A program made the position numbers and the translations under genes. The notes beneath the pieces were generated by a model. The model searched no databases. It was given only the letters and a program-made list of their open reading frames with translations, and was not told the DNA's origin. DNA of 64,000 bases from an uncultured Gammaproteobacteria bacterium (GTDB lineage: Bacteria > Patescibacteriota > Microgenomatia > Daviesbacterales > UBA10151), in assembly GCA_964500725.1 (NCBI GenBank), contig CAZCNP010000001.1:766-64765 (forward strand), in the 5' to 3' direction. Of the stretch, positions 16,423 to 48,415 are shown piece by piece. Each line of letters begins with the position of its first letter. Position 1 is the stretch's first letter.

Positions 16423-16456
16423 AATTACAGTCTTTTACTGAAAGTAAAAGTATATA
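16423..16456. promoter_or_regulatory. 34-nt conserved palindromic element (AATTACAGTCTTTTACTGAAAGTAAAAGTATATA), copy 1, 12 nt upstream of the GT4 start
   Basis: Identical to 48382-48415. It contains an 8-3-8 inverted repeat (CTTTTACT gaa AGTAAAAG) and a TATATA box. Confidence 0.55.
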
Positions 16457-16520
16457 GACCTGCCAAAGTATAAATGTTTTAAATTAGAGAAAATTGAAAA
16501 TTAAGTAAGGTTTTAGTAAG

Positions 16521-17804
16521 TTAAGTTAAAAAATCCAAAGCAGCAGCAGCAGACCAGGCCTGAACCCTGCACCCAACCTGCCCTGAAGAAGAGAGGTACT
16601 CCCTCAAATTACCACATTCATCTTTAATATAAAGTTCAATGGGGTAATTAAAATGATATAAAGGTTTTAAGGATGCTTCTTTCAGCTTGCTAGCCTCATC
16701 ATCAAAGCCAAAATTTTCTAAACCCTCAAAGATAAGCCCATTTAACATAGGCCAAAAGCTGCCATTATGGTAAGAATCCCTATTGTGGTTAAAGGTGGGG
16801 GATAGAGTACTCATTGTTCTTATCCCAGCATCAGCATCAAACAAATCAGGTTGAAAAACCCTCTTTACCATACCCTCTATAAACTCATCATCAATAATAG
16901 ATTCTACTTTACTACCCTTTATATCAGCTGCCCAAAGGGAAATTAAAGGATTGCCTGTGATAGTTTTTATAAGTCTTTTATCACCATCTATAGCCTGTCC
17001 AGCAAAATCGAATCCATGATCTTTAAAAATAAACAGCTTATTAAAGTTTTCCTTAATATGATCTGCCTGGGCAGATAATCTATGGGCAAAAGTAGGAAAT
17101 ATGTCTTGGTAAAATCTGGACCATAATTTTAAAACCAACCAGGCTTTACCTTGAACCTCTACTGGAGCTATTGGGTATTTGGGGAAAAATCCATCAGGGC
17201 CTTTTAAAGACTCATGAGAGTCTGTCCAGGATTGGACTACCAAACCCCCATATCTTCTTTCTTCCTCTAAAGTATAATCCAAAAGTCCATCTTTATCCCT
17301 GTCTCCATAAGTAATAATCCAGTTCAAACCCATCTCAACAAAAGGCTGTACAGCCTTTAAAAACTGCTGGTCTGCTGTGGCTTCCCAGTACCTATAAATA
17401 GCCAGTAAAGCCAGAGGGGTAGAATCTAGGGAATCATAATTTCTTAAATACCCATCAGGATAAAGGTACCAGGGTTTATAGGACTTGGTAGTTAAGTGCT
17501 CATGTTTACTTTTTCTAAACTCATGGATAAATTTGCCAGGCTGCTCTCCTGATTCTATATTTTTTTCTTTACCTTGCAGGGAACAAAGGGTTATTAAGGC
17601 TTTTTTAGAAATATTTAGAAGCTCACTGCAGGGGAATTTTTTATGGACTTTTAATATCTTTAAGATCGTTAAAGCACTGTCTCTGCCAAAGATACAACCA
17701 TAAATTTCATCTTTACCTGAGGCATTAATCCCATCTTCAGTAGCTAAACCAAGAAGGTTTTGGTATATTAGGTCACGGAAATTTGCAGGTTGGACAGTAT
17801 TCAT
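16521..17804 (-). CDS. Amylo-alpha-1,6-glucosidase / glycogen-debranching-enzyme C-terminal family (six-hairpin glycosidase)
   Basis: CIFGRDS motif and overall GDE_C-like sequence. Confidence 0.6.
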   Translation of the reverse strand: MNTVQPANFRDLIYQNLLGLATEDGINASGKDEIYGCIFGRDSALTILKILKVHKKFPCSELLNISKKALITLCSLQGKEKNIESGEQPGKFIHEFRKSKHEHLTTKSYKPWYLYPDGYLRNYDSLDSTPLALLAIYRYWEATADQQFLKAVQPFVEMGLNWIITYGDRDKDGLLDYTLEEERRYGGLVVQSWTDSHESLKGPDGFFPKYPIAPVEVQGKAWLVLKLWSRFYQDIFPTFAHRLSAQADHIKENFNKLFIFKDHGFDFAGQAIDGDKRLIKTITGNPLISLWAADIKGSKVESIIDDEFIEGMVKRVFQPDLFDADAGIRTMSTLSPTFNHNRDSYHNGSFWPMLNGLIFEGLENFGFDDEASKLKEASLKPLYHFNYPIELYIKDECGNLREYLSSSGQVGCRVQAWSAAAALDFLT

Positions 17805-17841
17805 TTTGAAATGGGTAATCTACAAAATTATTATATACAAG

Positions 17842-17988
17842 TCAAGTAAGAATTTGCTTTAGTAACTTTTCTTTTAAATCCTCTAAGTTTTTAAATATAA
17901 TCCCTTTAATTCCTAATTTTTCCTCCATCAAAGTACTTTTGTGTTTTAAAATAACACCCCCAAAATCGAAAATAATATTTTTAATCAT
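17842..17988 (-). CDS. 48-aa ORF resembling a HAD-like hydrolase N-terminal motif I (IIFDFGGVIL); possible gene remnant
   Basis: Hand translation. Absent from the ORF track because it is under 60 aa. Confidence 0.25.
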   Translation of the reverse strand: MIKNIIFDFGGVILKHKSTLMEEKLGIKGIIFKNLEDLKEKLLKQILT

Positions 17989-18043
17989 ACTTTAATTATA
18001 TTATTTTATTGACAAATAAGGAGTAAAGGAAGATAGTAAGCTT

Positions 18044-18766
18044 GTGGCTACCTCAGCGCAAATCGCTATAAAAGCTCGAGAATTTATAAAAACCCATAAA
18101 CCACAATTATGCCAAAAGTTTGCCAGCTTAGAAGAATATCCTCCTGTTGAAAAACCATCTGCTTACTTTATGGCTGGCTCGCCTGGAGCTGGTAAAACAG
18201 AATTCTCCAAGTCTTTTATAAAAGAATTATCAGAAAAAGAACCTACAAGAAGAATTGTCAGAATAGATGCTGATGAGATCAGAGATTTTATCCCTTTCTA
18301 TGATAAAACCAATGCTTATAGAATTCAGGGAGCTGCAGCATTAGGAGTTGAAAAATTATTAGACTGCACATTACAAAACAATCAGGATTTCATACTGGAT
18401 GCTACTTTTGCTGATTTAGAAAAATCTCGTACAAATATCTTACGCTGTCTTCATAAAAAACGTAAGATTGCGGTCGTATATTTATATCAAGATCCAGTAG
18501 TAGCCTGGCAATTTACTAAAAAGAGAGAAAAACTAGAGGGAAGAAAAATTCCCTTAGATATGTTTATAAATGCTTTTTTTGCAGCCAAAGAAAATGTTAA
18601 CAAAATTAAAAAAGAATTTAAAAATTACAAGGAAGTAGAATTGTGGCTTATTATAAAAAATTTAGAGCAGGGTATTGAAAAAACTTATTTTAATATAGAT
18701 AATGTTGATAGTTACCTGAAAATAGATTATACTGCAGAGTCCTTAAAGGAGAAATTAAGAAAATAA
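18044..18766 (+). CDS. Zeta-toxin family P-loop kinase (AAA_33-like)
   Basis: Aligns to PezT/zeta at the Walker A (AYFMAGSPGAGKTEF), at IVRIDADEIR and at the ILDATF block. Confidence 0.6.
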   Translation: MATSAQIAIKAREFIKTHKPQLCQKFASLEEYPPVEKPSAYFMAGSPGAGKTEFSKSFIKELSEKEPTRRIVRIDADEIRDFIPFYDKTNAYRIQGAAALGVEKLLDCTLQNNQDFILDATFADLEKSRTNILRCLHKKRKIAVVYLYQDPVVAWQFTKKREKLEGRKIPLDMFINAFFAAKENVNKIKKEFKNYKEVELWLIIKNLEQGIEKTYFNIDNVDSYLKIDYTAESLKEKLRK

Positions 18767-18767
18767 T

Positions 18768-18941
18768 ATGTTTAAGTTTATCAAGACTAAATTACTAAAT
18801 GAGAAAGAAAAAGTTTCTGCTCCAAGTTTCTTTGATTATACAGCTGCAGAGAAGAAAAAAATTGTAAAAAAAGCAGCTCAAGAAGCTAATAAAATGCAGC
18901 TTAATCTGGTAAAAAAATATAATCGTTTATATCCTGCTTAA
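18768..18941 (+). CDS. 57-aa Lys-rich small ORF coupled to the zeta-like gene (stop/start TAATATG)
   Basis: Hand translation: MFKFIKTKLLNEKEKVSAPSFFDYTAAEKKKIVKKAAQEANKMQLNLVKKYNRLYPA. Confidence 0.3.
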   Translation: MFKFIKTKLLNEKEKVSAPSFFDYTAAEKKKIVKKAAQEANKMQLNLVKKYNRLYPA

Positions 18942-18960
18942 AAACCTACCATTTTTTCTT

Positions 18961-20106
18961 TCAAGATCTATAGCTTTTGAAATAAAGCAGGGTTACTGGG
19001 GCTCCCAGTATTACAGCAAAAATTAAGGCATTAATTGGGCCTACTTTATCTGCAACAATTCCTAAGATTATAGAGAAAATCCCAAAACAAATACTTTGGC
19101 CAAAGTTATTTAAAGATCCCATGGTAGCCCTTTGCTGATTGGTAAAGGCTTTTTGCATTAAATTATCCTCAGCTACCATATTAGTCCCAAATAATAGGGA
19201 AGTAGAACTCATCAAAGCTGGTGAGGCCACAGTTGGGAATATTAAAGAAACTAAATTAATAACAAAAGAATATATCCCACTAAAAATAATTAATTTATAT
19301 TCATTGAATTTATTAATTAGCTTTCCACTAAAGTAGAAGCTCAAAGCTCCTCCTATATTAGAAGCAGTTTGGGCAAGTCCAATAGCCCAGATAGGCCAGA
19401 GGAGTTGTATAAAAGCAGATCTAAACATCCAGGCAGATTCTCCTATTCCATAACTTAAAATACCAGATAAACTTAAATATCTTAATTTTTTATTTGTTAT
19501 AAAAAGCTTTAAGGATTCAGCTAGATGATTATAAATATTAGTGCTTTCTTTTTTATGAATTTTTGGCTCTTTAAAAAGAAAGCTTAGCAAAATACAAACA
19601 ACTGGAGAAAGGATTGATAACCAAAATACTAAAGGAAAAGATTTAGCAGCAATAAAAGAACCTAACACTGCTGAGATAGCTAAGGCTACCTGATCCATAG
19701 AAGAAGTTTTTCCCAACACTTCATGGTAAATATTTACCCTGCCTTGTTCACTTAAAGTATCATAAAGTAAAGCTGTATTATTCCCACTAAAAAAAGATCT
19801 GCTTATCCCTTCTGCAACAGCTCCTAAAAGCAGTACCCAATAAGAAAACCCTAAGGCATAACAGAAAATACCAAAAGTTAAAAATAGGCTTCCCAAAAGG
19901 ATAGTTTTCTTTCTGCCAATATAATCAGAAAATACCCCTGTGGGAATCTCAAAAAGGGCAGAGGATAAGTAGGTAGCAGAGAAAATACTCATCCCCAAAG
20001 CATAAGAACCACTAACTTGGGAAAAATAGATAATAGCAATAGGAGCATAAAACCTAAAATCAGCAAAGAAATTAAACAAATAAAATAAATTAATATTCCT
20101 ATTCAT
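18961..20106 (-). CDS. MFS transporter
   Basis: 381 aa with about 12 hydrophobic segments. Confidence 0.7.
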   Translation of the reverse strand: MNRNINLFYLFNFFADFRFYAPIAIIYFSQVSGSYALGMSIFSATYLSSALFEIPTGVFSDYIGRKKTILLGSLFLTFGIFCYALGFSYWVLLLGAVAEGISRSFFSGNNTALLYDTLSEQGRVNIYHEVLGKTSSMDQVALAISAVLGSFIAAKSFPLVFWLSILSPVVCILLSFLFKEPKIHKKESTNIYNHLAESLKLFITNKKLRYLSLSGILSYGIGESAWMFRSAFIQLLWPIWAIGLAQTASNIGGALSFYFSGKLINKFNEYKLIIFSGIYSFVINLVSLIFPTVASPALMSSTSLLFGTNMVAEDNLMQKAFTNQQRATMGSLNNFGQSICFGIFSIILGIVADKVGPINALIFAVILGAPVTLLYFKSYRS

Positions 20107-20149
20107 TCTTACATTGTACAGTACTCAAACCCTGCAATTGCTCACAGAA

Positions 20150-20713
20150 TTAAATAAGTTCTAACAACCCCTTTTCTGCGGCATTAAAATCCTCAAATGT
20201 TTTATATCCATACTTTTCTGCTTCCTGTTTATATTTTTCTCTTTCACAGTTAAAAAAGAGTTCTGCTTCTTTTCTTTGTAATCTTTCTGTTTTTCCCCAT
20301 CTTGGGTTTTTCTTATTCCTTTCAAAGATTTGTTCCAAAGATTCTCCTAATAAAAATATCCCTGGAAAACTAAAATCTTTATTTGCTAGATGAGGAAGGA
20401 TATTTACTCCTTCTACTACTACTGATTTATGAAATTTTATAGTTTCTTTAACTTTGTTTAACATTGTTGGCCAAAAGGCCTCTGATTGAGCAACTAAATT
20501 TTTCCAATGATCTTCGCAAGAAGTTTGTGTTAAATACTTTTCTTCATCTTGATTAAAGAAAAAATCAGTCCAATACCTTAAGTTTGGGTCATTTCTCATT
20601 TCTGCTCTTAATGTATCTAAATTTAAATGGAAAGCTCCAGTTTTTTCAGCAACTTTTCTTGCTAAATAACTTTTCCCTGATGCTGGTATCCCACCAATAA
20701 AAACATGGCTCAT
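20150..20713 (-). CDS. P-loop NTPase / kinase-like protein
   Basis: Walker A motif GGIPASGKSYLA. Confidence 0.55.
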   Translation of the reverse strand: MSHVFIGGIPASGKSYLARKVAEKTGAFHLNLDTLRAEMRNDPNLRYWTDFFFNQDEEKYLTQTSCEDHWKNLVAQSEAFWPTMLNKVKETIKFHKSVVVEGVNILPHLANKDFSFPGIFLLGESLEQIFERNKKNPRWGKTERLQRKEAELFFNCEREKYKQEAEKYGYKTFEDFNAAEKGLLELI

Positions 20714-20806
20714 AAGCTTAGTATAGATGTTTACATCTGTAATTCAAAGAATTACAGAAAGCATAAGCAACTATCTTACAATCTAACTTTTTGTTAGAAT
20801 TTTGCT

Positions 20807-21337
20807 ATGATCACAAGAAAGCAACAGAAATGGATTGATCATCTCTCTGATGTAGATAAAATAAAGATAGTTCCTTTTGATCCAACTGCTGAAGAAAAAT
20901 TTCAAAAAATAAAACAAAAAATTCAGGATGCCTTGGGAAAAGATATTTCTGTTTTACATCGTGGAGCATCTAGCTTAGGTATTTCTGGACAAGATGAAAT
21001 TGATATTTATGTTCCAGTTCCTTCTAATCAATTTAATCCACTAATAGAACCATTAAAGAATCTTTTTGGAAATCACGGAAGTCTTTATCCATTAGAAAGA
21101 GTGCATTTCGTAACAGAAGTTGATGGAAAACATATAGATATATTTTTAATAAATAATGAGTGTGAGGGTTGGACTAATGGAGTTAAGTTCGAAAATTACC
21201 TTCGTTCCTATCCAGATACCTTGGAAGCATATAGATTATTAAAAGAGAACGGAGATGGATTATCAGGTAGAGAATACTACCGCAGGAAGATTGAATTCTT
21301 TAATGAAGTACTATCTAAACTGGACAAAGGGTGCTAA
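20807..21337 (+). CDS. GrpB family protein (nucleotidyltransferase fold)
   Basis: HRGASSLGISGQDEIDIYVPV matches the GrpB pattern. Confidence 0.6.
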   Translation: MITRKQQKWIDHLSDVDKIKIVPFDPTAEEKFQKIKQKIQDALGKDISVLHRGASSLGISGQDEIDIYVPVPSNQFNPLIEPLKNLFGNHGSLYPLERVHFVTEVDGKHIDIFLINNECEGWTNGVKFENYLRSYPDTLEAYRLLKENGDGLSGREYYRRKIEFFNEVLSKLDKGC

Positions 21338-21465
21338 ATGCCCTGTATCTGGAAAAATCAAAAACCCAATTTTCCCTTTACCACCAACAATATATTCTCC
21401 GGTAATTTTATCAATTTCTAATCTTTGTATCGTGTGATCTTTTATAATAGTTTCAACAAAATTCA

Positions 21466-22092
21466 TTATTTATTTTCTCTTTGGCTAATCTTCCAAAATC
21501 TTAAAATCCCATACCCAATTAGCAAACCTCCCACAATTCCATTTAATAGTTGGATTAATAAAGCAGGAACAGTTCCCTTTATAAGAGAGAATATCATTAC
21601 AGACAAACCCATAAATAAGAATGTAGCAAAACCAGTTCCTAAGCCAAAAATTAATAATTCTTTTCTGGTGTAGTTATACTCAACAGCTTTTGCAGTAAAT
21701 AGACTGGTGAATGTAACAATTGTCTGAGGACTAGATATAGTGATTAAAAAAACTGAGGTAAAACTTGTTAGGATACCTGTGGATGCTATTGTCAAAATAT
21801 TTAATGTATTACCATTAACTGCCCCTTTTAAAATTAAAGATCCCAGGATTATCAATACTCCTGAGCTAATAATCCCAAAAGGTTTTTTAACCTTTTTATG
21901 TTCAATCAGTTTACCGATACCAACAATTGCTAAAGAAATATAAAGGTAGTCAACAAGGGTTACAGCCAATACTCCTGCAAAACCATCTATAAATGATCTC
22001 TGCAAAGCCAAGTTAATAATAAAGAAAAATACAGGACCAATGGCAAGCTGTAAAGTTAACCCTGTTAATAAACCATTTATAAAAATATTCAT
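21466..22092 (-). CDS. LysE/RhtB family amino-acid exporter
   Basis: N-terminal GLLTGLTLQLAIGPV motif and multiple TM segments. Start trimmed to MNIFING. Confidence 0.7.
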   Translation of the reverse strand: MNIFINGLLTGLTLQLAIGPVFFFIINLALQRSFIDGFAGVLAVTLVDYLYISLAIVGIGKLIEHKKVKKPFGIISSGVLIILGSLILKGAVNGNTLNILTIASTGILTSFTSVFLITISSPQTIVTFTSLFTAKAVEYNYTRKELLIFGLGTGFATFLFMGLSVMIFSLIKGTVPALLIQLLNGIVGGLLIGYGILRFWKISQRENK

Positions 22093-23699: not shown

Positions 23700-23739
23700 T
23701 AAAAGTATTATTCAGCAAATAGTTCACTGTCCTATCAAG

Positions 23740-23766: not shown

Positions 23767-23788
23767 GAAGCAAATATATTTCACAAAA

Positions 23789-24523: not shown

Positions 24524-24550
24524 TTTAACATAGCTTACAACCTTCTTTTG

Positions 24551-24633: not shown

Positions 24634-24673
24634 ATGTCACATATTCTAACATCAATGATATAATATTTCCGCT

Positions 24674-35786: not shown

Positions 35787-35787
35787 A

Positions 35788-37838: not shown

Positions 37839-39536
37839 ATGAAAGTTTCTATAAACTGGTTAAAAGAATTAGTAGATTTAAAAGCTTCTGTTGAGGAGCT
37901 AGTGAAGCTTTTAGCTCTTAGGACTATTGGAACCAAAGAAGTAACAGGCCAATATATTGAGCTGGATATGAAAGGCTACAATAGGGCAGACCTGTTATCT
38001 TTAAGAGGGGTAGCCAGAGAAATAGCTGCTATTACTGATTCTCAAATTACTTTTGAAAATGAGAACCCTAATAAATTCCCTTGGGTTACCCAAAAACTAC
38101 CTGAAACACCAGTTAAAGTAGAAAATCCAGAGCTGGCTCCAGTTTATTGTATTGTCAAAATTGAGGGACTAAAAATTGGTCCTTCTTCTAAAGAGTGGGT
38201 AAATAAACTTGAAAGCAGTGGTATAAGATCAGTGAATAATCTGGTAGATATAACCAACCTCCTGATGGTTGAATATGGTCAAGACATGCATGCATTTGAT
38301 GCTGACTGTATTGCTGAACAAAAACTAATAGTTAGACTTGCAAAAAAAGGAGAACAGTTAACAACCCTTGATGGAAAAAGGCTTCAGCTATCAGAAGAGG
38401 ATTTGATAATTGCTGACCCTCAAAAACCAGTTGGCTTGGCAGGTATCATGGGAGGTAAGGATTCAGAAGTTTCTCAAAATACCCAGACTATTTTTTTGGA
38501 GATCACTATTTTTGATCCCATTGCTATTCGTAAAAGCAGCCACAGGCATAGACTTCATTCAGAAGCTGCAAAAAGAGTCCAACATGGGCTTACCAGAACT
38601 AATCTTCTACAATCAATGTCTGCTGCTATAAAAATGTATGAGAGCTTAGGAGGCAAAGTCACAGCAATTACATTAATAGGAGACCTAAAAGATGAAACTA
38701 AAACTGTTACTTTATCTCAAGAAAAAATTAACTCTTTAGTTGGAGTAGATATTTCTCCTGAACAAGTAGAAGATTCTTTAACTAAGCTAGGTTTTACTTT
38801 AGCTTCCCACATCGGAAGTGGGAATGTAATTTGGGAAGTTACAGTTCCATACTGGAGACTGGATATAAATATTGAGGAGGATATAGTAGAGGAAGTAGCC
38901 AGGATGTATGGTTATGAAAAGATTCCTGCCAAGCCTTTGACTGACAATATACCAAATATAGAGGAAAATCCCCTTTTTGAGGCTTTAGAGAGGCTTAAGC
39001 AGGCACTTTCAAAGACAGGTCTAACTGAAGTCCAAACCTATTCCTATTACTCCAGCAAGGTAATTCTCAATTCTCAATTCTCAATTGTCAATTTGATCAA
39101 AGTTGCCAATCCTATCTCATCTGAAACAGAATACTTAAGAGATAATCTTTGGCCAAATTTACTGGAAGCAGTTGCTAAAAATATTAGAAATGGAGTTAAA
39201 GATGTTGCTATTTTTGAGGTAGGAAAAGCCTACCTTATAAAGAATGGCTTACCAGAAGAACCTCACAGGTTAGCTATAGCTTTATCAAATAGTACTGATA
39301 ATCCTATTGCTGAGCTTTACCAGATTTTCCAACGTTTAGGATCACACCTGGAAGGTATCAAGCTAAATGCTGATAAGAAACCAGGACGAGAAACTTTTCA
39401 TCCCACCAGATCATCTGTTTTAGAAGAAGATGGAAAACAAGTTGGCTTTATAGCTGAAATCCACCCCAGGATTGTTAATAAATTTGGAATAGACCAAAGA
39501 GTAGCTGTGTTGGAAATAGAAATAAATAATTACTAA
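37839..39536 (+). CDS. pheT: Phenylalanyl-tRNA synthetase beta subunit (short form)
   Basis: B3/4 and B5 regions (VTVPYWRLDINIEEDIVEEVARMYGYEKI). Contains an in-frame REP-like insert at 38801-38827 and a 7-mer tandem repeat at about 39056-39084. Confidence 0.9.
   Translation: MKVSINWLKELVDLKASVEELVKLLALRTIGTKEVTGQYIELDMKGYNRADLLSLRGVAREIAAITDSQITFENENPNKFPWVTQKLPETPVKVENPELAPVYCIVKIEGLKIGPSSKEWVNKLESSGIRSVNNLVDITNLLMVEYGQDMHAFDADCIAEQKLIVRLAKKGEQLTTLDGKRLQLSEEDLIIADPQKPVGLAGIMGGKDSEVSQNTQTIFLEITIFDPIAIRKSSHRHRLHSEAAKRVQHGLTRTNLLQSMSAAIKMYESLGGKVTAITLIGDLKDETKTVTLSQEKINSLVGVDISPEQVEDSLTKLGFTLASHIGSGNVIWEVTVPYWRLDINIEEDIVEEVARMYGYEKIPAKPLTDNIPNIEENPLFEALERLKQALSKTGLTEVQTYSYYSSKVILNSQFSIVNLIKVANPISSETEYLRDNLWPNLLEAVAKNIRNGVKDVAIFEVGKAYLIKNGLPEEPHRLAIALSNSTDNPIAELYQIFQRLGSHLEGIKLNADKKPGRETFHPTRSSVLEEDGKQVGFIAEIHPRIVNKFGIDQRVAVLEIEINNY
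38801..38827. repeat. REP-like 27-nt palindrome (AGCTTCCCAC ATCGGAA GTGGGAATGT) in frame inside pheT (encodes SHIGSGN)
   Basis: 7-bp inverted repeat TTCCCAC/GTGGGAA around a 7-nt spacer. It is near-identical to the copies at 47437-47463 and 58018-58044. Confidence 0.8.
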
Positions 39537-39563
39537 TTAACTAATTAACCTAATTTCTAAAGA

Positions 39564-39926
39564 ATGACTAATGATAAAATTACTAATAAGTTTGATTTAG
39601 AAGATAGAACTGCTAAATTTGGAGAAGATACCATACAGTTTTGTCAAAAAATACCCAAGGGACCTATCACTAATCCTCTAATAACTCAACTAGTAAGATG
39701 TAGTACTAGTGTAGGAGCAAATTATTGTGAGGCAGATGATGCAGAAAGTAGAATGGATTTTAAGCATAAAATAGGCATTTGTAAAAAAGAATCAAGAGAA
39801 TCTAAACATTTTATTAGAATGATTGTGGTTGCAGTACCAAATTTAAAAGAAGAAGCAAGATTATTATGGCAAGAAGCTAAAGAACTAAATTTGATTTTCA
39901 ATTCAATATTTAAAAAAGTTACATAA
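39564..39926 (+). CDS. Four-helix-bundle protein (23S rRNA intervening-sequence protein family, TIGR02436-like)
   Basis: QLVRCSTSVGANYCEADDAESRMDFKHKIGICKKESRESKHFIRM fits the family pattern. Flanked by AT-rich TTAGTAATT/ATTAGAAATT repeats. Confidence 0.65.
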   Translation: MTNDKITNKFDLEDRTAKFGEDTIQFCQKIPKGPITNPLITQLVRCSTSVGANYCEADDAESRMDFKHKIGICKKESRESKHFIRMIVVAVPNLKEEARLLWQEAKELNLIFNSIFKKVT

Positions 39927-39975
39927 TTTAGTAATTGGGATTTATTTAGTAATTAGAAATTAGTAATTAGAAATT

Positions 39976-42567
39976 TTATAAGGCTACAGTAACCCCAATT
40001 GAATGGGTGAAGGTCCCACCATTGTTATCTTCTAAAGTAACTGAAATAGTATGTGATCCTTTATCTCCATTAGGAAACTCAACATGTAAAGCATAAGGCT
40101 CAGAGGTCTGAGTAGATTTAATACCCCCATCTATTAACCAGGTCATCTTTTTAACTCCTGCAGGAGAATTTGCCCTGGCTAAAACATCAAAAACCCTGGG
40201 AACATTAGCCCCATTTGTAACATTAACTATCTCAACAACAGCCCCAGTCCCAGCAGTAAATCCTGGCACCCCTGAACAACCCTGGGAAGCTCCCACAAAC
40301 CTAGGATCAGCAGCAGTTAATACCCACTCATCTATCCCTTTCTGCCATTTATTAGCTCCAGTTGGATCATCTTCTTTTAAAACAACCACATCCTTTTCCT
40401 CATTATCTTCACCATCATTGGCTAACCTGTGAGTGTTACTTTTACAGACCTTTTTTCTTTGATAAGATCCTGATTCTCCTTTAGGCTCAGTTCCTGCTAT
40501 AAAATATTCTTTTCTGGTAGGAGAACCACCATGAGGCTTGCCAGTCATCAACCCATCCACCTCTACTTGTAAAACATTTTCAGGTTTGGCAAAAGGCTCA
40601 TTTTGCTTACCTTCTAAAGCAGCTCTCATTATCTTATTCCAAATAGGGGAGGCTCCAGTAACTCCAGAGGCTACCACAGGGCTCATCTCAGCATTGTTGT
40701 TATTTCCTACCCAGGCTCCTACTACCACAGATGGGGTATACCCCACAGCCCAGTTATCTCTTTTTTGATCTGTTGTTCCAGTTTTAACAGCTACAGTTTT
40801 TCCTGGAATATTTAATACTGAGTTTGAACCAAAAGCAGCAGTTCTGGCTCCATTATCAGATAAAATATCAGAAATAATAAAAGCAATCCCTGGTTCTAAG
40901 ACTTTTCTTCCCTCAGGCTGTCTATATTCAAAAAGGGTTTTTCCTTTACTATCTGTAACCTTTAAAATAGAGATTGGATCAAGCTGCATGCCTTGATTGG
41001 CAAAAACAGCATAGGCTGAAGCTAAATCCAAAAGTCTTACTTCTCTTCCTCCTAATACTAAAGATAATCCAACAGAGTTAATATTCTCCTCAGAAGGCTC
41101 CCAGGTTGAAATACCCATCCTATATCCAAGCTCCATAGCATCTTTTACCCCGACCAGAGCCAAGTTTTTAACAGCAGGGATATTGTAAGAATTAGCCAGG
41201 GCATACCTTAACTGAACTGGACCATGAAACTGACCATCATAATTTACTGGGTTGTAAGCTGGTTGATCTCCTCCAGGAAATTCAGTCTTAACATCCATAT
41301 AAACCTGGCTGGCTGTATAACCTTTTTCCAAAGCTTTTGTATAAACAATGGGTTTGGTGGCAGAACCTGGCTGTCTTGGGGCAATAGCCACATTAACATT
41401 AGGTTCAAAAGTACAAGTTTCTCCCTCTTTACAACCTTCAGGCAAAGAATCTCCAAAATAATCCTTGCTTCCAACCATAGCTAAAATCTGCCCAGTTTTA
41501 GGATCCAATACTACAGCAGCAGCATTTCCCACCTTTGCAGAAGATAAGCTTTCTACTTCTTCTTTAACTATCTCTTCAGCCTTTTTCTGCAACTTATAAT
41601 CCAAAGAGGTAGTTACTCTCAAACCCCCACTTTCCACCATCCTGTCCCCAAATTGTTCTATTAATTTTTCTTTAACATACAAAACAAAATGGGGGGCTTT
41701 AAAGCCTTGTTCACTTCTGCTGGTTCTATAAGTTAACTCTGCTGCTGCAGCCTCTTCAGCTTGATTTTTAGTAATATATTTATCCTCAACCATCCTATTT
41801 AAGACTTCTTTTTGCCTTGTTTTGGCAAGCTGAGGACGGGTGCCGTATGGAGAATAAACAGAAGGCCTTTGAGGAAGTCCTGCAAGGAGCGCTGCCTCAG
41901 CCAAATTTAAATCCTTAGAAGATTTACCAAAGTATAAATTAGCTGCAGCTTCTATCCCATAAGCAGTACCACCATAAGGAATCTCATTTAAATACATCTC
42001 TAAAATTTGGTCTTTGCTGTAAGACCTTTCAACTTGAACAGCTAGGATAAACTCTTTAAGTTTTCTAGTAACAGTTCTTTCCCCAGAAAGCAGGGCATTT
42101 TTAACAAGCTGCTGGGTTAAAGTTGAACCTCCCCCTTCAACCTGCCTATGAATAACCAATTTAAACAGTGACCTGACAATTCCAGATACAGAAAAACCAC
42201 CGTGTTTATAAAAATCCTTATCCTCTATAGAAAGAGTAGCCTGTTTTACATAATCTGGAATATCAGCAAGTTTTACAGGAGTCCTATTTTGATCTTCATA
42301 AATATCATACAAAAGCTCATCTTCTTTATCATAAATTTTAGTAGCTGCTGCTATTTCCCTGTTGGTTAAATCAGAAGGGTTGGGGATTTGGGTTGCAAAA
42401 AAGATCACTGCAGCAAAAAGCAAAAAAAGAAAACCTACCACAATAACTAAAATACTGGCAGATAGGCCTGATAATAGTTTGAATTTCCAGAGTTTTTTAC
42501 TTTGTCTTCTGGCACTCCAGGAACCATGAGTCATCTTAGAGAGATTATACCAACTCTGGAAAGTCAA
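39976..42567 (-). CDS. Class A penicillin-binding protein PBP1A (transglycosylase + transpeptidase) with a C-terminal Ig-like extension
   Basis: N-terminal TM segment, GT51 motifs (ATKIYDKEDELLYDIYE...GGSTLTQQLVKN), transpeptidase SATKP and KTGTT. Confidence 0.85.
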   Translation of the reverse strand: MTFQSWYNLSKMTHGSWSARRQSKKLWKFKLLSGLSASILVIVVGFLFLLFAAVIFFATQIPNPSDLTNREIAAATKIYDKEDELLYDIYEDQNRTPVKLADIPDYVKQATLSIEDKDFYKHGGFSVSGIVRSLFKLVIHRQVEGGGSTLTQQLVKNALLSGERTVTRKLKEFILAVQVERSYSKDQILEMYLNEIPYGGTAYGIEAAANLYFGKSSKDLNLAEAALLAGLPQRPSVYSPYGTRPQLAKTRQKEVLNRMVEDKYITKNQAEEAAAAELTYRTSRSEQGFKAPHFVLYVKEKLIEQFGDRMVESGGLRVTTSLDYKLQKKAEEIVKEEVESLSSAKVGNAAAVVLDPKTGQILAMVGSKDYFGDSLPEGCKEGETCTFEPNVNVAIAPRQPGSATKPIVYTKALEKGYTASQVYMDVKTEFPGGDQPAYNPVNYDGQFHGPVQLRYALANSYNIPAVKNLALVGVKDAMELGYRMGISTWEPSEENINSVGLSLVLGGREVRLLDLASAYAVFANQGMQLDPISILKVTDSKGKTLFEYRQPEGRKVLEPGIAFIISDILSDNGARTAAFGSNSVLNIPGKTVAVKTGTTDQKRDNWAVGYTPSVVVGAWVGNNNNAEMSPVVASGVTGASPIWNKIMRAALEGKQNEPFAKPENVLQVEVDGLMTGKPHGGSPTRKEYFIAGTEPKGESGSYQRKKVCKSNTHRLANDGEDNEEKDVVVLKEDDPTGANKWQKGIDEWVLTAADPRFVGASQGCSGVPGFTAGTGAVVEIVNVTNGANVPRVFDVLARANSPAGVKKMTWLIDGGIKSTQTSEPYALHVEFPNGDKGSHTISVTLEDNNGGTFTHSIGVTVAL

Positions 42568-42633
42568 TGCGAATGCATGTGTATTTGGTATTTAACAATA
42601 CATGTATTGGATATTGTATAATTTGCTTGAAAT

Positions 42634-42873
42634 ATGAATATACCTTTTAAATTACTCTCCACAGTATTACTTGGTCTAGGAACAAACTTCTTGGTTAGCC
42701 CATTCGTGGCTTGGTTACTCTTTTACAGTAGCTCTGAACGATATCTTTGGACAATCCAGGGACCTTTCCCATTTAACTATGCAGGAAGCAGTGCAGGATT
42801 ACTGTTTGTACTAATCGGAATATTGCTTCTTGGATTTTTCTTAATCTTTCTTTCTCAACTTATTAAAAAATAA
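42634..42873 (+). CDS. Small membrane protein (2 TM)
   Basis: Hydrophobic ORF. Confidence 0.35.
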   Translation: MNIPFKLLSTVLLGLGTNFLVSPFVAWLLFYSSSERYLWTIQGPFPFNYAGSSAGLLFVLIGILLLGFFLIFLSQLIKK

Positions 42874-42945
42874 TCCAGATTTTCTTCTAATTTGAGCGTA
42901 GTAAAAATTATAGTCTTTCTAAAAAAGTATACAAATTCTAAAGGG

Positions 42946-43028
42946 TCCGGAGGGAAGGGATCGAACCTTCGTAGGGTTACCCCGCCAGATTTACAGTCTG
43001 GAGCAATTGACCACTCTGCCACCTCCGG
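42946..43028 (-). tRNA. tRNA-Tyr (anticodon GTA), long variable arm
   Basis: Acceptor CCGGAGG/CCTCCGG, D-stem GCAG/TTGC, anticodon stem CCAGA/TCTGG, loop CTGTAAA, T-loop TTCGATC. Confidence 0.8.
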
Positions 43029-43077
43029 ATCCTGTTATTATACCTAAATTTGCTGATTGAGGAAAGGGGACTACCTT

Positions 43078-43921
43078 TTAAACTATGCTTACTAAAATTA
43101 CTCCCAAAATAGTAATAAATACCCCTGTTAGCTGAAACTTGGTAATTTTTTCTTTAAACCAAACAAAAGCTAAAAATAACATTACTAAAGAAGAGCTAGC
43201 TGAAATTGGAGTAACTATTGATGCTGGACCTTTTTGTAAAGCAAGATGAAAAAATAAAACTCCAATAAACAGAAAAAAAACTTGAGGCTATAGCATAACT
43301 AGTTTCTGGTGATATTTTCCTGGGTAAAATAAATTTCCTACTACTTAATAAATTTAAAATTACTGCTACAATAGTCCACCCTAAAACAAAAGATATAGAA
43401 TAACTGTAAGCCCCATACTCAGAACTCATTACCTTAGCTATAAAATCCCCTAAACCAGCAAAAACAGCGCCTCCTAAACCCCACAATAACCAAGTACCAA
43501 TTTTTATATTTTTAATTTCCTTTGGGTGTTCTAAAGAGATAAAAATTAAACCTAATAAAATAGCAAAAATACCAAATTTTGCTGTAGCAGTAATAGATTC
43601 ATTTAAAAACAGTGAGGCTAAAATAACAGTATAAAGTGGATAAGTTTCCAAGACTGTACCAGTTAAAGATAATTTGCCCTTTTCTAAAGCATAATAATAT
43701 AAAGCATATCCTCCTGAGGCTATAGCAGCAGCTGGGACTAAAGGCCAAAAAATAAATTTTCCTCCCTGTAAAAGTGAAAAAGGGATCAAAGTTATAACAG
43801 AAGCAACACCCCTAAGGCTAACATAATCAATAGGGGATAATTGCTTATAAGCTCTTTTGGCAAAAGCAATATTTAACCCCCAGACTAAAGCTGTAAGAAA
43901 AGATAATAGCAACCAATCCAT
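43078..43921 (-). CDS. DMT/EamA family transporter, interrupted by a -1 frameshift in an A8 (sense T8) homopolymer at about 43271-43280
   Basis: The ORF-track frame ends in junk (FSVYWSFIFSSCFTKRSS). The other frame continues with canonical EamA sequence (FFLFIGVLFFHLALQKGPASIVTPISASSSLVMLFLAFVWFKEKITKFQLTGVFITILGVILVSIV) to the stop at 43078. Confidence 0.6.
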
Positions 43922-43966
43922 TATTAAGTTATATCATTTATTTAAGAAAATCTGTAAAATATCCTG

Positions 43967-44341
43967 ATGCCAACTGCAGAAGCAAGAGAGCAAGGAAAAA
44001 ATACACAGGATTCAAAAAAACTTGTATTATCCTTGGATTTTGCTCGCAAAGTACATGAGTGCATTCAGGAATTACCTATTAATACTCCTATCGCAGATCT
44101 TAAATTCTGGCGCCAGCATCCTGGGCGCATACCTACATGGACTCAGCTAATGAGAAACTCCTCACATTGGGAGCAAAAGCAATTAAGCGCTCTCTTCTAT
44201 AGAATACTTCGTTCCCCTGGAGGCAAAGATATCAATCTTGGCGCACTTACAACCGAGTTTGATGTAGACACACTAACACTATGGAGTAACAGTGGGGGAA
44301 CCGGAAAAACATTTGTTCGCGAAGCCTTCCAGAAATTTTAA
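43967..44341 (+). CDS. Hypothetical protein (GC-richer islet)
   Basis: ORF with local GC of about 42-44% against a background of about 33%. Confidence 0.45.
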   Translation: MPTAEAREQGKNTQDSKKLVLSLDFARKVHECIQELPINTPIADLKFWRQHPGRIPTWTQLMRNSSHWEQKQLSALFYRILRSPGGKDINLGALTTEFDVDTLTLWSNSGGTGKTFVREAFQKF

Positions 44342-44400
44342 GATTATATCTTTACCACATTATTGACTTTAAAAAAAATCTTGGTAATAATCATAAAGGC

Positions 44401-44970
44401 ATGGGATTGTTAACCGAAGTCCTCCATTTTGGAAGATCTATATTACCAGGAGAACCCCCTAAAACATTAGATGATATCAAAGCTGTAGAAGAATGCGCCA
44501 CTGCTACCGAAATGCTCCTTAGTGATACCGGCCTAGCATGGACAAGAATGGCCAACAATAACACTGTTATAATCGGAGAAGTTATCACAAACAAAGGTCG
44601 GGTTGTGAGCCACCAATCTTGGTTTATCGTACGCAACAGAAAGGGTCGTTTAGAGATTGAGGTGGCTCCAACTGATGGAGCAGAAATAACACTGGATGTT
44701 TTTGCAAACAGCCAACCAGAGACGCCTTTAACACAGTCAATCGCCAATCATAACCAACAATTTGAACCTATTAATATCGGTGATGGTCAATTTGGCAAAT
44801 TACGCTATGAAACTAGGGAACCCAATCTAGGTCCAGAAGCAACTTTTATTATAGATCAGCAAGGAATACGTCCATTTGCAAGTGAAAAACCCGTTAGAGA
44901 AGTTGAAGAAATTGGAGGGCGAGATACTCATATCATCAAGTCTATTCTTGCCGAACCCTCATCTACATAA
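44401..44970 (+). CDS. Hypothetical protein (GC-richer islet)
   Basis: ORF in the same compositional island. Confidence 0.45.
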   Translation: MGLLTEVLHFGRSILPGEPPKTLDDIKAVEECATATEMLLSDTGLAWTRMANNNTVIIGEVITNKGRVVSHQSWFIVRNRKGRLEIEVAPTDGAEITLDVFANSQPETPLTQSIANHNQQFEPINIGDGQFGKLRYETREPNLGPEATFIIDQQGIRPFASEKPVREVEEIGGRDTHIIKSILAEPSST

Positions 44971-44974
44971 ATCT

Positions 44975-45442
44975 TTAACGGAACTTGGGGTTAAGGGATT
45001 TTTTAACTAGTTTGGCCACAAATACTATCTCTCTTATTTGCCCATCCTCACCTTCAATCTCATTTAAACCAGACAATCTCTGGTATTCTCTCAAGTAGTC
45101 AGATAAACCTTCTCTTAATTCTTTTTGTTCTAACTTTAAATCTTTTAATTTATTTATTAAATCAGCCACCTCAGGCCTTTTTTGAATCTCTTTTTTGGTA
45201 TTGGAACGTATTCTGGCTGCTTCTTTGGCTACTTTATCATGTTCTTGATAGGTTTCATCATTTACAAAGACATCATTTACCATATCCCTAAGCTTTGTAA
45301 TTTCTCCCTGCAAAGTATCAATTTGAGAGGTATGGGTTTTAATCATCTCCTCGATTCTAACAAGTAGTACTGCATCAGAGCTTGAAGTTTGCTCTTCTGG
45401 TGCGGGGGTTTCTTCTATAGTTTGTACATCCTGGTTATCCAT
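44975..45442 (-). CDS. Hypothetical coiled-coil protein
   Basis: ORF. Confidence 0.45.
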   Translation of the reverse strand: MDNQDVQTIEETPAPEEQTSSSDAVLLVRIEEMIKTHTSQIDTLQGEITKLRDMVNDVFVNDETYQEHDKVAKEAARIRSNTKKEIQKRPEVADLINKLKDLKLEQKELREGLSDYLREYQRLSGLNEIEGEDGQIREIVFVAKLVKKSLNPKFR

Positions 45443-45544
45443 GGGAATAGATATAATAGCTGAAATTTTCCTAAAAATGCAAGGCTTAATTTATGAGTAC
45501 TATACTTGCAAGTTTATTTATCAAGATGTAAATTTAACTGCAAT

Positions 45545-46141
45545 ATGATTGAGGACAATCCAGAGATGAACACGTTCTTTGCTTTGCAAATAAAAGACTT
45601 AGACCTTGTTCGAAGAACCCAAAGCGGTGATCTAGAAGCATTTGGAGATTTATATATAAGATACCAAAGACGAGTTACTCGTATACTTACAAGATTTGGC
45701 TGCAGTGATGTTGAAAATGTGGTTGGAGATGTATTTTTAAAAGCTTTTACAGGAATACAAAAATTTAGGCCCGAAACTGAAACTTCTTTTAAATCCTGGA
45801 TTGACAGAATTACAATCAATACAGGTATTAATGCTGTTGCAAGAAAACCTTCTGAAATTACCACTGTAACGGAATTTGCAGAAACCCATAAATGGGCAGA
45901 TCCAGAAGCAACTTACCAAATAAGAGAAACCATTCTAGAATTACTCAACTCTATAGGCAAACTACCTTCCCGTCAAAGAATGGCAATTAAGGCAAGATTT
46001 GGAGAAGGCCTAGATAGTCCAAGTATAGCTAAATTAACTAATACTACAATAGGTGGAGCCAAAGCCCTAGTGCACAGAGCCCTAGAACAGTTAAGAAGGA
46101 ATTTACAACCAATATCAACAACTCCATCAGAAGATGTTTAA
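45545..46141 (+). CDS. Sigma-70 family (ECF-like) RNA polymerase sigma factor
   Basis: Region 2 (DLYIRYQRRVTRIL...FKSWIDRITIN) and region 4 (LPSRQRMAIKARFGEGLDSPSIAKL). Start trimmed to MIEDNPEM. Confidence 0.7.
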   Translation: MIEDNPEMNTFFALQIKDLDLVRRTQSGDLEAFGDLYIRYQRRVTRILTRFGCSDVENVVGDVFLKAFTGIQKFRPETETSFKSWIDRITINTGINAVARKPSEITTVTEFAETHKWADPEATYQIRETILELLNSIGKLPSRQRMAIKARFGEGLDSPSIAKLTNTTIGGAKALVHRALEQLRRNLQPISTTPSEDV

Positions 46142-46149
46142 GATTTGTC

Positions 46150-46602
46150 TTAAGCCTTTTTTACTAGGAAATATAATCCAATTACCTCTATTGATATCAT
46201 TAAAAGATTCAAGTTATCAGATGCAGAACTTAAACTACCCAGTCCCAGCCAAAAATTAATATTTAAAAATATACCTCCTAAAAGCCCCGACATTAGTAAA
46301 ACTCTTGCCCATTTGAGTTGATATTGTTTTAGAAGCAATACTGATCCAATAGTAATAGCCATCCCGCTCAACAACTCTCCCCACATAACCAGGGTCCCAA
46401 ACAGATAAGAGTTGGGTATCACAATACTAGTTAAAAATTGTTTAAAAGCAGGATAGGGGTTATTATCAACACTTTTAGATAATATCTGTCCCAAAGAAGA
46501 TGCAAAACTGCCTTCAGAAAATTTTGTCAGACTGCTTCTTAGCCAAACAAAACCTATTGATAAAAGTATCAGCAGCAATGGTTTATTATTCATATAAATC
46601 AA
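46150..46602 (-). CDS. Membrane protein (4 TM), hypothetical
   Basis: Hydrophobic ORF overlapping the GT2 stop. Confidence 0.45.
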   Translation of the reverse strand: MIYMNNKPLLLILLSIGFVWLRSSLTKFSEGSFASSLGQILSKSVDNNPYPAFKQFLTSIVIPNSYLFGTLVMWGELLSGMAITIGSVLLLKQYQLKWARVLLMSGLLGGIFLNINFWLGLGSLSSASDNLNLLMISIEVIGLYFLVKKA

Positions 46603-48365
46603 TTATCAGTCCATTTAGTTTCTGGAGTCTCCACCCTTCCTAATTTTTGACCTAATAACAAAACGAAAGATAGCAGATAACTATAAAACTTACCATGATA
46701 ATGTACCGAAGCTTTTTTTAGTAACTCATAAGCTTTTTCGCGGCCAATTCTTTTAGTAGAACCTCCATGATGGTGAATAAACTTTGCCTCTGGCACAAAG
46801 AATAAAGGCACCCCGAACTGTTTTAATCTTCTGGCATATTCAATATCCTCAAAGAAAATGAATGATCCTTCATCTAATAACCCAACTTTATTAAGTATCT
46901 TCTTGGGAATGAACAAACAAGCCATTACCATCCCTTCTACCAGAGAGTGCTTATCGCCTGTAGGTAAATACATAAAATAAGACCCTTTCTGAGCCAGAAA
47001 ATACTCCTTAAATGCTCCAGTTAGGGTAGGCAAATGAAAAGCAGAATCTTGGGAAGAATAATCTGGAAAAACTAATTTTCCTCCTAAAACAGCCTTTCCT
47101 TTGAATTGCTCCTCAGCTTCTATTAATTTAGAAATGCCACCCTCTAAAACTTCTATATCAGAATTTAACATTAAATAATACTCACCTAGAGAGTACTTTA
47201 TTGTTTTGTTATAGCCTTTGGAGAAACCTTCATTTTCTTTATTTTGTAAATATTTAACATTAAACTGATTGATCCAACTTGAGCAAGGATCCAAAAGCCC
47301 ATTATCTAAAACTATTACCTCCATATTTTTTTCATCAAAACCAGATTTTTTATCAAAAATGCTTTGCAGGAGTTTTTTGGTTAAATCTGCAGTGTTGTAA
47401 TTTACTATTCCTATTGATAATTTCAAAGGATATTCTACGTTCCCACTTCCGATGTGGGAAGCTAAATTCCCATTTCCTGTTATGCCTAAATAAAAATCCA
47501 ATATTCCTTTTCTTTGAGCTGGCCTGCCAAAAATAAACAGCCATAAAGCCTCTCTAAGTAAAGCAAACCTAGTCCTTAATTTTCCATACTGCATCCCAAA
47601 AATTAATCTGTTTCTGGTGTGGTAATAATCTGTAAGTTCTGATCCTATTCCTGTAGACTGGGAAACTTTATGATAAATGCTTGTCTTGCCATTATAGTAA
47701 ATCTTAAATCCTGCATCTTTAACTCTTTTTGCAAAATCACTATCTTCAAAGTACAAGAAATATTTTTCATCTAAACTCACTTGTTCAAAAACTTCTTTTT
47801 TTACTAGCACACAAGCCCCAGAAAAAATCTCAGCTTCTTCAACTTGATCATATTGTCTCTTATCTACTTCATCTATTCCTCTGTGAATCGAGCCAATATT
47901 ATCCCAGTCAAATTTTCCCCCAGCAAACCAAATTACTCTTCCTAAATCCTGCCTTTCATACCTGTCTTTGTGAAATTCAAATCCAGGAGCAAAATAAATT
48001 TTAGGAGAAACCAAACCAATTTTTGAATCAGATTCTAATGTTTTTATAAGTTGAGAAATCAAATCAGCATCACTTACTTCACAATCATTATTTATCAGTA
48101 AAAAATAATCAGACCCACAAATTTGGGCATACTCTATACCTTTGTTAAACCCTCCAGAAAACCCCAAATTTTCTCCAGTTTGCACTATATCAACTTCAGG
48201 AAACTGTTTATGGAAAGCTTGTATTCTTCCATCTATAGATCCGTTATCCACAACAACAATTTTCAATTCTCCATTGTCAATTTTCAATTTCTCTAGCGAT
48301 TCTAAAAACTCTAGCGTGTCTTTTTTTCCGTTGTAATTTAGCGTAATTATTGCGGCTTTTTTCAT
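46599..48365 (-). CDS. Tandem two-domain family-2 glycosyltransferase (GT-A x2)
   Basis: Two ITLNYNG...VVDNGS and IVNYNT...VLDNG GT2 modules. The linker carries an in-frame REP-like insert at 47437-47463. Confidence 0.75.
   Translation of the reverse strand: MKKAAIITLNYNGKKDTLEFLESLEKLKIDNGELKIVVVDNGSIDGRIQAFHKQFPEVDIVQTGENLGFSGGFNKGIEYAQICGSDYFLLINNDCEVSDADLISQLIKTLESDSKIGLVSPKIYFAPGFEFHKDRYERQDLGRVIWFAGGKFDWDNIGSIHRGIDEVDKRQYDQVEEAEIFSGACVLVKKEVFEQVSLDEKYFLYFEDSDFAKRVKDAGFKIYYNGKTSIYHKVSQSTGIGSELTDYYHTRNRLIFGMQYGKLRTRFALLREALWLFIFGRPAQRKGILDFYLGITGNGNLASHIGSGNVEYPLKLSIGIVNYNTADLTKKLLQSIFDKKSGFDEKNMEVIVLDNGLLDPCSSWINQFNVKYLQNKENEGFSKGYNKTIKYSLGEYYLMLNSDIEVLEGGISKLIEAEEQFKGKAVLGGKLVFPDYSSQDSAFHLPTLTGAFKEYFLAQKGSYFMYLPTGDKHSLVEGMVMACLFIPKKILNKVGLLDEGSFIFFEDIEYARRLKQFGVPLFFVPEAKFIHHHGGSTKRIGREKAYELLKKASVHYHGKFYSYLLSFVLLLGQKLGRVETPETKWTDN
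47437..47463. repeat. REP-like 27-nt palindrome (ACGTTCCCAC TTCCGAT GTGGGAAGCT) in frame in the GT2 inter-domain linker (encodes ASHIGSGNV)
   Basis: Reverse complement of the pheT copy with one mismatch. Confidence 0.8.
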
Positions 48366-48381
48366 AATTTGAGTCCTCGAG

Positions 48382-48415
48382 AATTACAGTCTTTTACTGA
48401 AAGTAAAAGTATATA
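48382..48415. promoter_or_regulatory. 34-nt conserved palindromic element, copy 2, 17 nt upstream of the tandem-GT2 start
   Basis: Identical to 16423-16456 and in the same orientation relative to the downstream gene. Confidence 0.55.

Follow-up and report, generated by a model that had tools for sequence, protein, structure and literature searches.

The locus examined here raises a simple question: why does one and the same 34-nt sequence stand in front of two unrelated glycosyltransferase genes of a single bacterial contig? The DNA analyzed, referred to below as the window, is a stretch of 64,000 nt from contig CAZCNP010000001.1 (assembly GCA_964500725.1, positions 766 to 64,765 of the forward strand). 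The two glycosyltransferases, one of family 4 (GT4) and one with two family 2 domains (tandem GT2), are encoded on contig JACQIW010000013.1 of assembly GCA_016198315.1, from Candidatus Daviesbacteria within the Candidate Phyla Radiation (CPR, Patescibacteria). The initial annotation of the window had read the repeated sequence either as a shared regulatory site for cell-envelope glycosylation or as a very recent duplication. Comparing the window with loci of related genomes (designated by L numbers), we arrived at a different reading: the 34-mer would be the core of a dispersed palindromic insertion element, which is small (~42-51 nt), has few copies, and acts as a portable promoter or boundary module. 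We give this reading a probability of about 0.5. The pairing with two glycosyltransferase genes is coincidental, and a local effect in cis on expression is plausible.

The 34-mer AATTACAGTCTTTTACTGAAAGTAAAAGTATATA, as written on the plus strand, occurs exactly at the two sites given in Table 1 and at no third exact site in the window. No further window match was found at up to three mismatches, and 100 dinucleotide-preserving shuffles yielded none either. The identity between the two copies ends sharply at both 34-nt borders, and the next-best ungapped 34-mers in the window have 12-13 mismatches, i.e., the level of the shuffles, so there are no degenerate ungapped copies. The two copies form a direct repeat with a distance of 31,959 nt and share their orientation. 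Both spacers separate co-directional minus-strand genes: the first, of 109 nt, lies between a GDE-like hydrolase gene (16521-17804) and the GT4 gene, and the second, of 68 nt, between a GT2 gene and the tandem-GT2 gene. The distance to the ATG is 11 nt for copy 1 and 16 nt for copy 2. The initial annotation thus held for the exact identity (by exact-match search and shuffles), for the shared orientation and the position just upstream of the two genes, and for the gene identities, which Pfam supports; the two genes are non-paralogous.

Read in gene sense, the element is TATATAC-TTTTACT-TTC-AGTAAAA-GACTGTAATT. The 8-3-8 inverted repeat described earlier is present in both copies (in copy 2 at 48391-48398/48402-48409). 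In copy 1, it is extended by an outer stem of 4 bp (TATA/TGTA) across a 2x2 internal loop, and the hairpin folds at -6.6 kcal/mol (z = -2.5); stem-loops of the element fold at -5.2 to -6.6 kcal/mol in all. The stem has one or two G-C pairs and is otherwise A/U-rich; the outer stem holds a U-G wobble, which is a U-A pair in the copy of locus L006. The "TATATA box" of the initial annotation does exist, but at the end of the element far from the gene. Among the families of Rfam 15, tRNAs alone were matched in the window, and the best value for 16350-16560 was E >= 2.8, far under the gathering score.

Evidence that the element inserts comes from the comparison of filled and empty sites. The window and three sister species (L048, L049, and L050) are mutually equidistant, at ~80% amino-acid identity, and the tandem-GT2 locus is element-free in all three sisters, whose orthologues are ~80% identical. 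The spacer between the GT2 and tandem-GT2 genes is 68 nt in the window and 25 nt in L048, and the two genes overlap in L049 and L050. Because the tandem-GT2 locus of three sister species is free of the element, copy 2 is an insertion of ~44-47 nt specific to the window lineage, placed between formerly overlapping or closely spaced genes. The tail of this block, CTCGAGGACTCAAAT, carries a GAGGA resembling a Shine-Dalgarno motif 8 nt from the tandem-GT2 ATG. Of the duplication suggested earlier, then, the part that stands is that copy 2 is a lineage-specific insertion of a dispersed repeat; the identity of the copies may reflect constraint rather than recency.

A second filled site was found in L006, which comes from the same genome as L049 (GCA_964415615.1). 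This copy is 33/34 identical to the window copies, and its sole change turns GACTGTAATT into GACTATAATT. It is oriented as the downstream gene, a DHH-like housekeeping gene of a nusA-infB-rpsO cluster that begins 52 nt further on. The corresponding site is empty in L055 (90% amino-acid identity), in L056, and in L051, which belongs to the window's own genome. The empty DHH-like promoters read ...TTG(C/A)TTTTTA^TGGGCT...(TAAAAT/TATAAT/TAGAAT)...ATG, and in L006, an insert of 51 nt separates the original -35 box from the -10 box. The GCA_964415615.1 record is titled "uncultured Gammaproteobacteria bacterium"; since its genes are ~80% identical to Daviesbacteria orthologues and syntenic with the window, this taxonomic label appears wrong.

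At the GT4 locus, the element occupies the corresponding position in the nearest relative, L041 (GT4 78% identical), and the locus is element-free in L057 (70%) and in L042 and L045 (both 67%), where the spacers measure 51-69 nt. Copy 1 is older than copy 2. In the alignment of these spacers, a TATACT upstream of copy 1 shares its columns with TATAAT in L057, TATCAT in L045, and TAAGAT in L042; the distance of these boxes from the start codon is 7-13 nt.

Presence and absence were thus observed at three non-orthologous sites; at each of them, the insert lies inside native expression signals and is oriented as the flanking genes. The inserts have in common the core and a loosely conserved tail ending in CAAAT. 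A duplication of TA (or TTA) fits the L006 site exactly (TTTTTA^TGGGC in L055 and TTTT[TA]{insert}[TA]TGGGC in L006), it also fits locus 1 (TTC-TA-TG in L042 and GTC-TA-{insert}-TA-TG in the window), and it is ambiguous at locus 2; a dinucleotide in AT-rich DNA, at few sites, is weak evidence. Terminal inverted repeats are absent from the inserts: the ends TATAC... and ...CAAAT are non-complementary, and the palindrome is internal.

Besides the two window copies and those of L006 and L041, the family has a fifth, degenerate member in the window, directly 3' of the tRNA-Tyr gene in a spacer convergent with a small open reading frame (42634-42873). It was found by a gapped search on the conserved flanks, reads GTATACTTTT-TTAG-AAAGACTATAATTTTTAC..., has TATACTTTT and AAAGACTATAATTTTTAC in common with copy 1 and the flank of that copy, and has the longest tail. 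The search of the source genome covered ~85 kb, and the L006 genome has one exact-core copy. Scans with the 19-nt palindromic core gave 14 matches in GTDB representative genomes, 22 in JGI metagenomes, and 2 in IMG/VR, all of which, except L006, were chance-like singletons with unrelated flanks. A flank-based family pattern, which allows variant stems, had 0 matches on viral contigs. A covariance model of the five members found no new ones over 257 kb of Daviesbacteria loci; the best hit outside the training set (E = 0.12) was the reverse strand of copy 2, and the hit on the tRNA-Tyr copy, which was in that set, is not independent evidence. In general, the family is restricted to a narrow clade of Candidatus Daviesbacteria, with sporadic insertions in a few related bacteria from groundwater, and is rare and low-copy.

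What could such inserts do to the genes they precede? To place them among native signals, we aligned 45 native promoters from seven loci (L039, L040, and L051 of the window's genome, and L042, L045, L049, and L056), with the alignment anchored on the -10 boxes; this replaced an unsupervised expectation-maximization run, which drifted onto a TGnTA register. In these promoters, 4-16 nt (mostly 6-10 nt) separate the -10 box from the ATG, the -35 boxes are of the TTGA type, and more than half have a TG extension (TGn). A Shine-Dalgarno-like motif is present in 11/89 promoter-proximal genes. Because the -10 box adjoins the start codon and Shine-Dalgarno-like motifs are rare, leaderless or very short-leader mRNAs appear to be widespread among the first genes of these Daviesbacteria, as far as promoter sequence can tell. 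The element itself carries boxes of this kind. Its TATACT is a frequent native -10 variant, and a second -10-like box, TGTAAT in the window, reads TATAAT in L006 and in the tRNA-Tyr copy. This TRTAAT lies 12 nt from the GT4 ATG, which is the distance of the native box in L045, and 17 nt from the tandem-GT2 ATG.

Since native promoters sit tightly at the start codons, each insertion should have been damaging, yet the downstream genes are intact and conserved. We propose that the element would insert at a TA dinucleotide with duplication of the TA, in two cases the TA of a TATG start site, and that each insertion would have displaced a native expression signal, be it a leaderless-type -10 box, translational coupling, or the spacing of -35 and -10 boxes. 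Thus, the GT4 -10 box would have been pushed 55 nt from its ATG, the coupled GT2 genes separated, and the L006 -35/-10 pair split. The element would survive only where its own -10-like boxes (TATACT and TRTAAT) face the downstream gene, and it would supply replacement start signals there, that is, serve as a portable boundary and promoter module. The hairpin may serve mobilization as single-stranded DNA, or it may form an RNA stem in read-through transcripts.

Several observations weigh against this proposal. The element has neither a -35 box nor a TG extension, unlike more than half of the native promoters, and the one hit of a consensus promoter scan was a weak TTAAGA-18-TATACT, which is seen at copy 2 but has no equivalent at copy 1. 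The window TGTAAT has a G at -11, where every selected native box has an A; that A was imposed by our selection filter, and an A at -11 of the -10 box is the canonical essential base. The tRNA-Tyr copy lies in a convergent spacer and has no gene to drive. L006 still has its native -10 box, and the end of the insert provides a TTGCAA 17 nt before it that could be a new -35 box, so the element's own box may be irrelevant there. Furthermore, transposition is no more than a putative route, because there are no terminal inverted repeats, no TA-duplicating transposase nearby, and only one exact-core copy in the L006 genome; the search of the source genome covered ~85 kb. A short templated insertion or gene conversion could also move such a segment. 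A different assignment of TGTAAT, to a promoter of an extracytoplasmic function (ECF) sigma factor, was rejected: no CGTC-type -10 box stands at a suitable distance, and synteny of the sigma gene extends to species in which the element is absent.

A stronger version of the portable-module reading would make the element an ultra-small (~45 nt) mobile hairpin specific to CPR bacteria and smaller than any described miniature inverted-repeat transposable element (MITE). It would insert at TA, often that of a TATG start site in genomes dependent on leaderless mRNAs, substitute its own -10 box for the displaced promoter, and be moved in trans, possibly by a resident domesticated Y1/HUH transposase acting on single-stranded hairpins. 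We regard this version as unlikely. A direct link to the Y1 transposase was considered and dropped, as a YGTAR 3' of the hairpin in both repeat families of the window (the second is described below) is a weak resemblance and no evidence.

The comparison of the two GT4 spacers bears on whether the element is constrained. Outside the element, the spacers of the window and L041 agree at 55/70 positions (79%). Within the element, the left flank TATATACTTTT is conserved at 11/11 and the right flank AAAAGACTGTAATT at 14/14 positions (25/25 together), whereas only three of the nine central bases are identical. At the spacer rate, flanks so fully conserved have a chance of ~0.003. The central changes in L041 replace A-U with G-C and C-G with U-A, and the loop is one base larger. 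In the alignment of the five members, all cells pair; one pair counts as two-sided, and a second is masked by a gap that MAFFT introduced. The covariation support for the stem is real but thin, and the hairpin suggested in the initial annotation gains support from these compensatory changes. Against this, template switching can produce matched changes in a DNA palindrome even where selection is not acting. The L006 copy is 33/34 identical although the species share only ~80% amino-acid identity, which points to constraint or repeated homogenization.

The main rival explanation accepts the same insertion repeat and gives it a role in RNA only. It would be a stem-loop in transcripts, located in 3'-UTRs or between cistrons and bordered by conserved A/U-rich sequence, and it would act like a repetitive extragenic palindrome (REP): a weak terminator, a protector of 3' ends, or a recognition site for an RNase or other protein, which would uncouple cistrons with no promoter function. 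All five members are sense to the gene or tRNA upstream of them, and their spacers are unidirectional or convergent in every case and divergent in none, which recalls the report that REPs occur mainly downstream of open reading frames, between unidirectional or convergent genes (PMC3733652). Given the spacer lengths, however, finding no divergent spacer at four independent sites does not reach significance (p ~0.2). The compensatory stem changes also favor a function in RNA, as does the outer-stem wobble, which pairs on the gene-sense strand only. Three of the five members (copy 1, L041, and the tRNA-Tyr copy) have 4-5 consecutive U residues after the outer stem, but copy 2 and L006 do not, and a scan for terminators was negative. 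Indeed, the criteria for an intrinsic terminator (a stable G+C-rich stem with a direct U tract) do not describe this hairpin, which is weak and A/U-rich. An RNA role would also leave the continued expression of the disrupted genes unexplained. Overall, we hold it to be somewhat unlikely.

Less probable still, and in our judgment clearly unlikely, is that the copies are neutral remnants that merely persist, such as a transposon footprint, a selfish miniature repeat, or a short templated repair insertion. The sporadic presence and absence and the low copy number would agree with this, and so would the other small intergenic inserts of the window lineage that are missing in its sisters (TAATTAGAAATTAG repeats and REP-like palindromes). 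The fully conserved flanks at locus 1 within a spacer that is otherwise 79% identical, the near-identity of the L006 copy across species, and the fact that the insertions struck expression signals of conserved genes that are still intact speak against neutrality.

The co-regulation favored by the initial annotation would require an operator for a dimeric transcription factor acting on the GT4 and GT2 genes, perhaps spread by insertion. The outer half-sites TATATACTTTT and AAAAGACTGTA are indeed imperfect inverted repeats, fully kept between the window and L041 around a variable center, and they overlap -10-like boxes beside the start codons. Nevertheless, the site is not kept at the orthologous tandem-GT2 loci (L048, L049, and L050) or GT4 loci (L042, L045, and L057). 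A search for further copies, as suggested in that annotation, led to members that precede the DHH-like gene of the nusA-infB-rpsO cluster or follow tRNA-Tyr, not to functionally related genes. Moreover, the center measures 9, 8, or ~4 nt among members, a variation that a dimer rarely tolerates, and a protein operator needs no compensatory changes in its center. No regulator gene adjoins either copy; synteny between the ECF sigma gene (45506-46141) and the tandem-GT2 gene holds even in species free of the element. We consider an operator very unlikely.

Finally, the reading of the two copies as attachment sites (attL/attR) bounding a 32-kb integrated element, which their direct repetition and an integrase gene (13769-14890) next to tRNA-Val might suggest, has virtually no chance and is refuted by the content of the interval (murT/gatD, thrS, infC, pheST, a penicillin-binding protein [PBP] gene, and four tRNAs, core housekeeping genes syntenic with the sister genome), by the position of the integrase outside it, and by the empty sites, against which each copy is singly an insertion.

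How does the element relate to small repeats already known? REPs and their REPIN forms are repetitive extragenic palindromes mobilized by Y1 transposases known as RAYTs. Like them, the element is an imperfect 20-40-nt palindrome (8-3-8 plus the outer 4-bp stem) in short unidirectional or convergent spacers, is probably transcribed as a hairpin, and is conserved across related species, in a genome that encodes a Y1_Tnp protein (57833-58555). REPs are described as imperfect 20-40 bp extragenic palindromes with an unpaired GTAG/CGTC tag at one end, high copy number, and a position flanking the RAYT gene (PMC3733652). By comparison, the element and its flanks have no GTAG or CGTC on either strand, only a TGTAA 3' of the stem, and two exact plus one degenerate copies were counted in 85 kb, with no inverted pairs. 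The Y1_Tnp gene is flanked not by the element but by TTCCCAC-N7-GTGGGAA palindromes.

These palindromes form a second repeat family, with a unit of ~30 nt (TTAGCTTCCCACATCGGAAGTGGGAAYGTA) around the TTCCCAC-N7-GTGGGAA core. The repeat flanks, and also lies within, the syntenic Y1_Tnp (IS200-like) gene. It is also part of the reading frames of PheT and the tandem GT2, which are unrelated proteins, and encodes there, in frame, the peptide LASHIGSGNV. The sisters (80% amino-acid identity) have it at the same positions, with the exception that the tandem GT2 of L050 is free of it. It resembles a REP/RAYT-type system, here in a CPR bacterium and with some copies in frame inside genes.

Correia elements of Neisseria (CREE) are 100-155 bp long, have 26-bp terminal inverted repeats, and are present in hundreds of copies. 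The element resembles them, and MITEs in general, as a small non-autonomous insert at TA with duplication (only inferred here) next to genes, with outward boxes like -10 and -35 sequences, RNA hairpins, and presence or absence at three orthologous loci, which indicates mobility. It differs in being about three times smaller (~45 nt), with an internal palindrome, no terminal inverted repeats, and few copies. The cyanobacterial small dispersed repeats (SDR) that Elhai et al. reportedly presented in 2008 (Genome Res 18:1484, a paper cited in PMC3116915) are said to be abundant palindromic units of 21-27 nt, often nested. They are similar in that the palindromic unit is very small, mobility is inferred only from presence and absence at orthologous sites, and no mobilizing enzyme is known; the present family, in contrast, is rare, longer, and always close to start codons. 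Lastly, putative mobile promoters were defined by Matus-Garcia, Nijveen, and van Passel in 2012 as sequences with >=80% identity over >=50 nt within -150 to -50 (PMC3575422). They too are highly similar sequences upstream of unrelated genes of one genome, sometimes across taxa, whose movement is unexplained. The identity of our element, 34 nt at -12 to -50, falls outside that definition, so it would go undetected, and its promoter activity is predicted.

Table 1. Positions of the element, its host genes, and other repeats and spacers (window coordinates unless a locus is named)
Feature	Position	Strand	Remarks
Copy 1, 34-nt core	16423..16456	-	Gene sense TATATACTTTTACTTTCAGTAAAAGACTGTAATT; between GDE and GT4; exact match
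Copy 1 hairpin	16432..16450	-	8-bp arms 16432-16439/16443-16450, 3-nt loop; flanks identical and stem compensated in the L041 orthologue
TGTAAT, -10-like box in copy 1 3' flank	16424..16429	-	12 nt from GT4 ATG; read from sequence
Putative inserted block, locus 1	16413..16454	-	TATAC...ACAAAAT, ~42 nt under TA-duplication model; aligned to L057, L045, L042
Putative displaced ancestral GT4 -10 box TATACT	16467..16472	-	Now 55 nt from ATG
GT4 glycosyltransferase gene, downstream of copy 1	15179..16411	-	Pfam PF00534, PF13439; start codon kept in orthologues
Copy 2, 34-nt core	48382..48415	-	Between GT2 (48434-49342) and tandem GT2 (46599-48365); exact match
Putative inserted block, locus 2	48367..48413	-	~44-47 nt; from spacer-length comparison
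Tandem GT2 glycosyltransferase gene, downstream of copy 2	46599..48365	-	Pfam PF00535 twice; N-terminus kept in orthologues
Third, degenerate member	42887..42935	-	TTTGTATACTTTTTTAGAAAGACTATAATTTTTACTACGCTCAAATTAG; short stem; directly 3' of tRNA-Tyr
Second palindromic repeat	38798-38827, 47434-47463, 57800-57829, 58016-58045, 58500-58524, 63422-63446
Second palindromic repeat in sisters	L048 2061; L049 432, 649, 8179, 10894, 18123
Toxin-antitoxin spacers	18044-18766; L051 5961-6417, 9375-9885; L049 13967-14608

Several other features of the window were noted. AT-rich TAATTAGAAATTAG repeats fill the 126-nt spacer between atpA and atpG (54283-54408), two genes that overlap in L049 and L050. Repeats of the same type (39512-39560 and 39926-39977) flank a gene of the 23S_rRNA_IVP family (39564-39926) between pheT and the PBP gene; in L049, pheT and the PBP gene overlap. 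The spacers with TAATTAGAAATTAG repeats are further lineage-specific small insertions. A 72-nt direct repeat (59048-59119 and 59742-59813, 99% identical, 694 nt apart) brackets a DUF6883 gene (59132-59476) and overlaps the 3' end of a 523-aa gene (59745-61316), and it may be a duplication made by the insertion of the latter. Many toxin-antitoxin genes (zeta toxin, HicAB, Phd/YefM, and MazE) lie in variable spacers that differ between sister genomes. In the first ~15,000 nt of the window (~1-15000), the tyrosine integrase gene stands beside tRNA-Val and tRNA-Leu, close to a D5_N/DUF5906 primase-helicase gene (10484-12991) and large open reading frames with no Pfam match (4990-8175 and 8184-9455); this region looks like an integrated mobile element or a prophage remnant.

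To our knowledge, next to nothing has been described of small palindromic repeats in Patescibacteria, or of how they provide or abolish expression signals; in this group, promoters and translation signals have been read from sequence only. As far as we have found, this is the first small dispersed palindromic insertion repeat noted in a CPR lineage. Its general significance is moderate, as the family is narrow and low-copy and its function is predicted. If the portable-module reading is true, a tempting glycosylation regulon in a CPR bacterium falls away. In its place would stand an insert of ~45 nt that pushed apart two once-overlapping GT2 genes and shifted a leaderless-type promoter out of place, and the case would show tiny repeats remodeling gene boundaries in very compact genomes.

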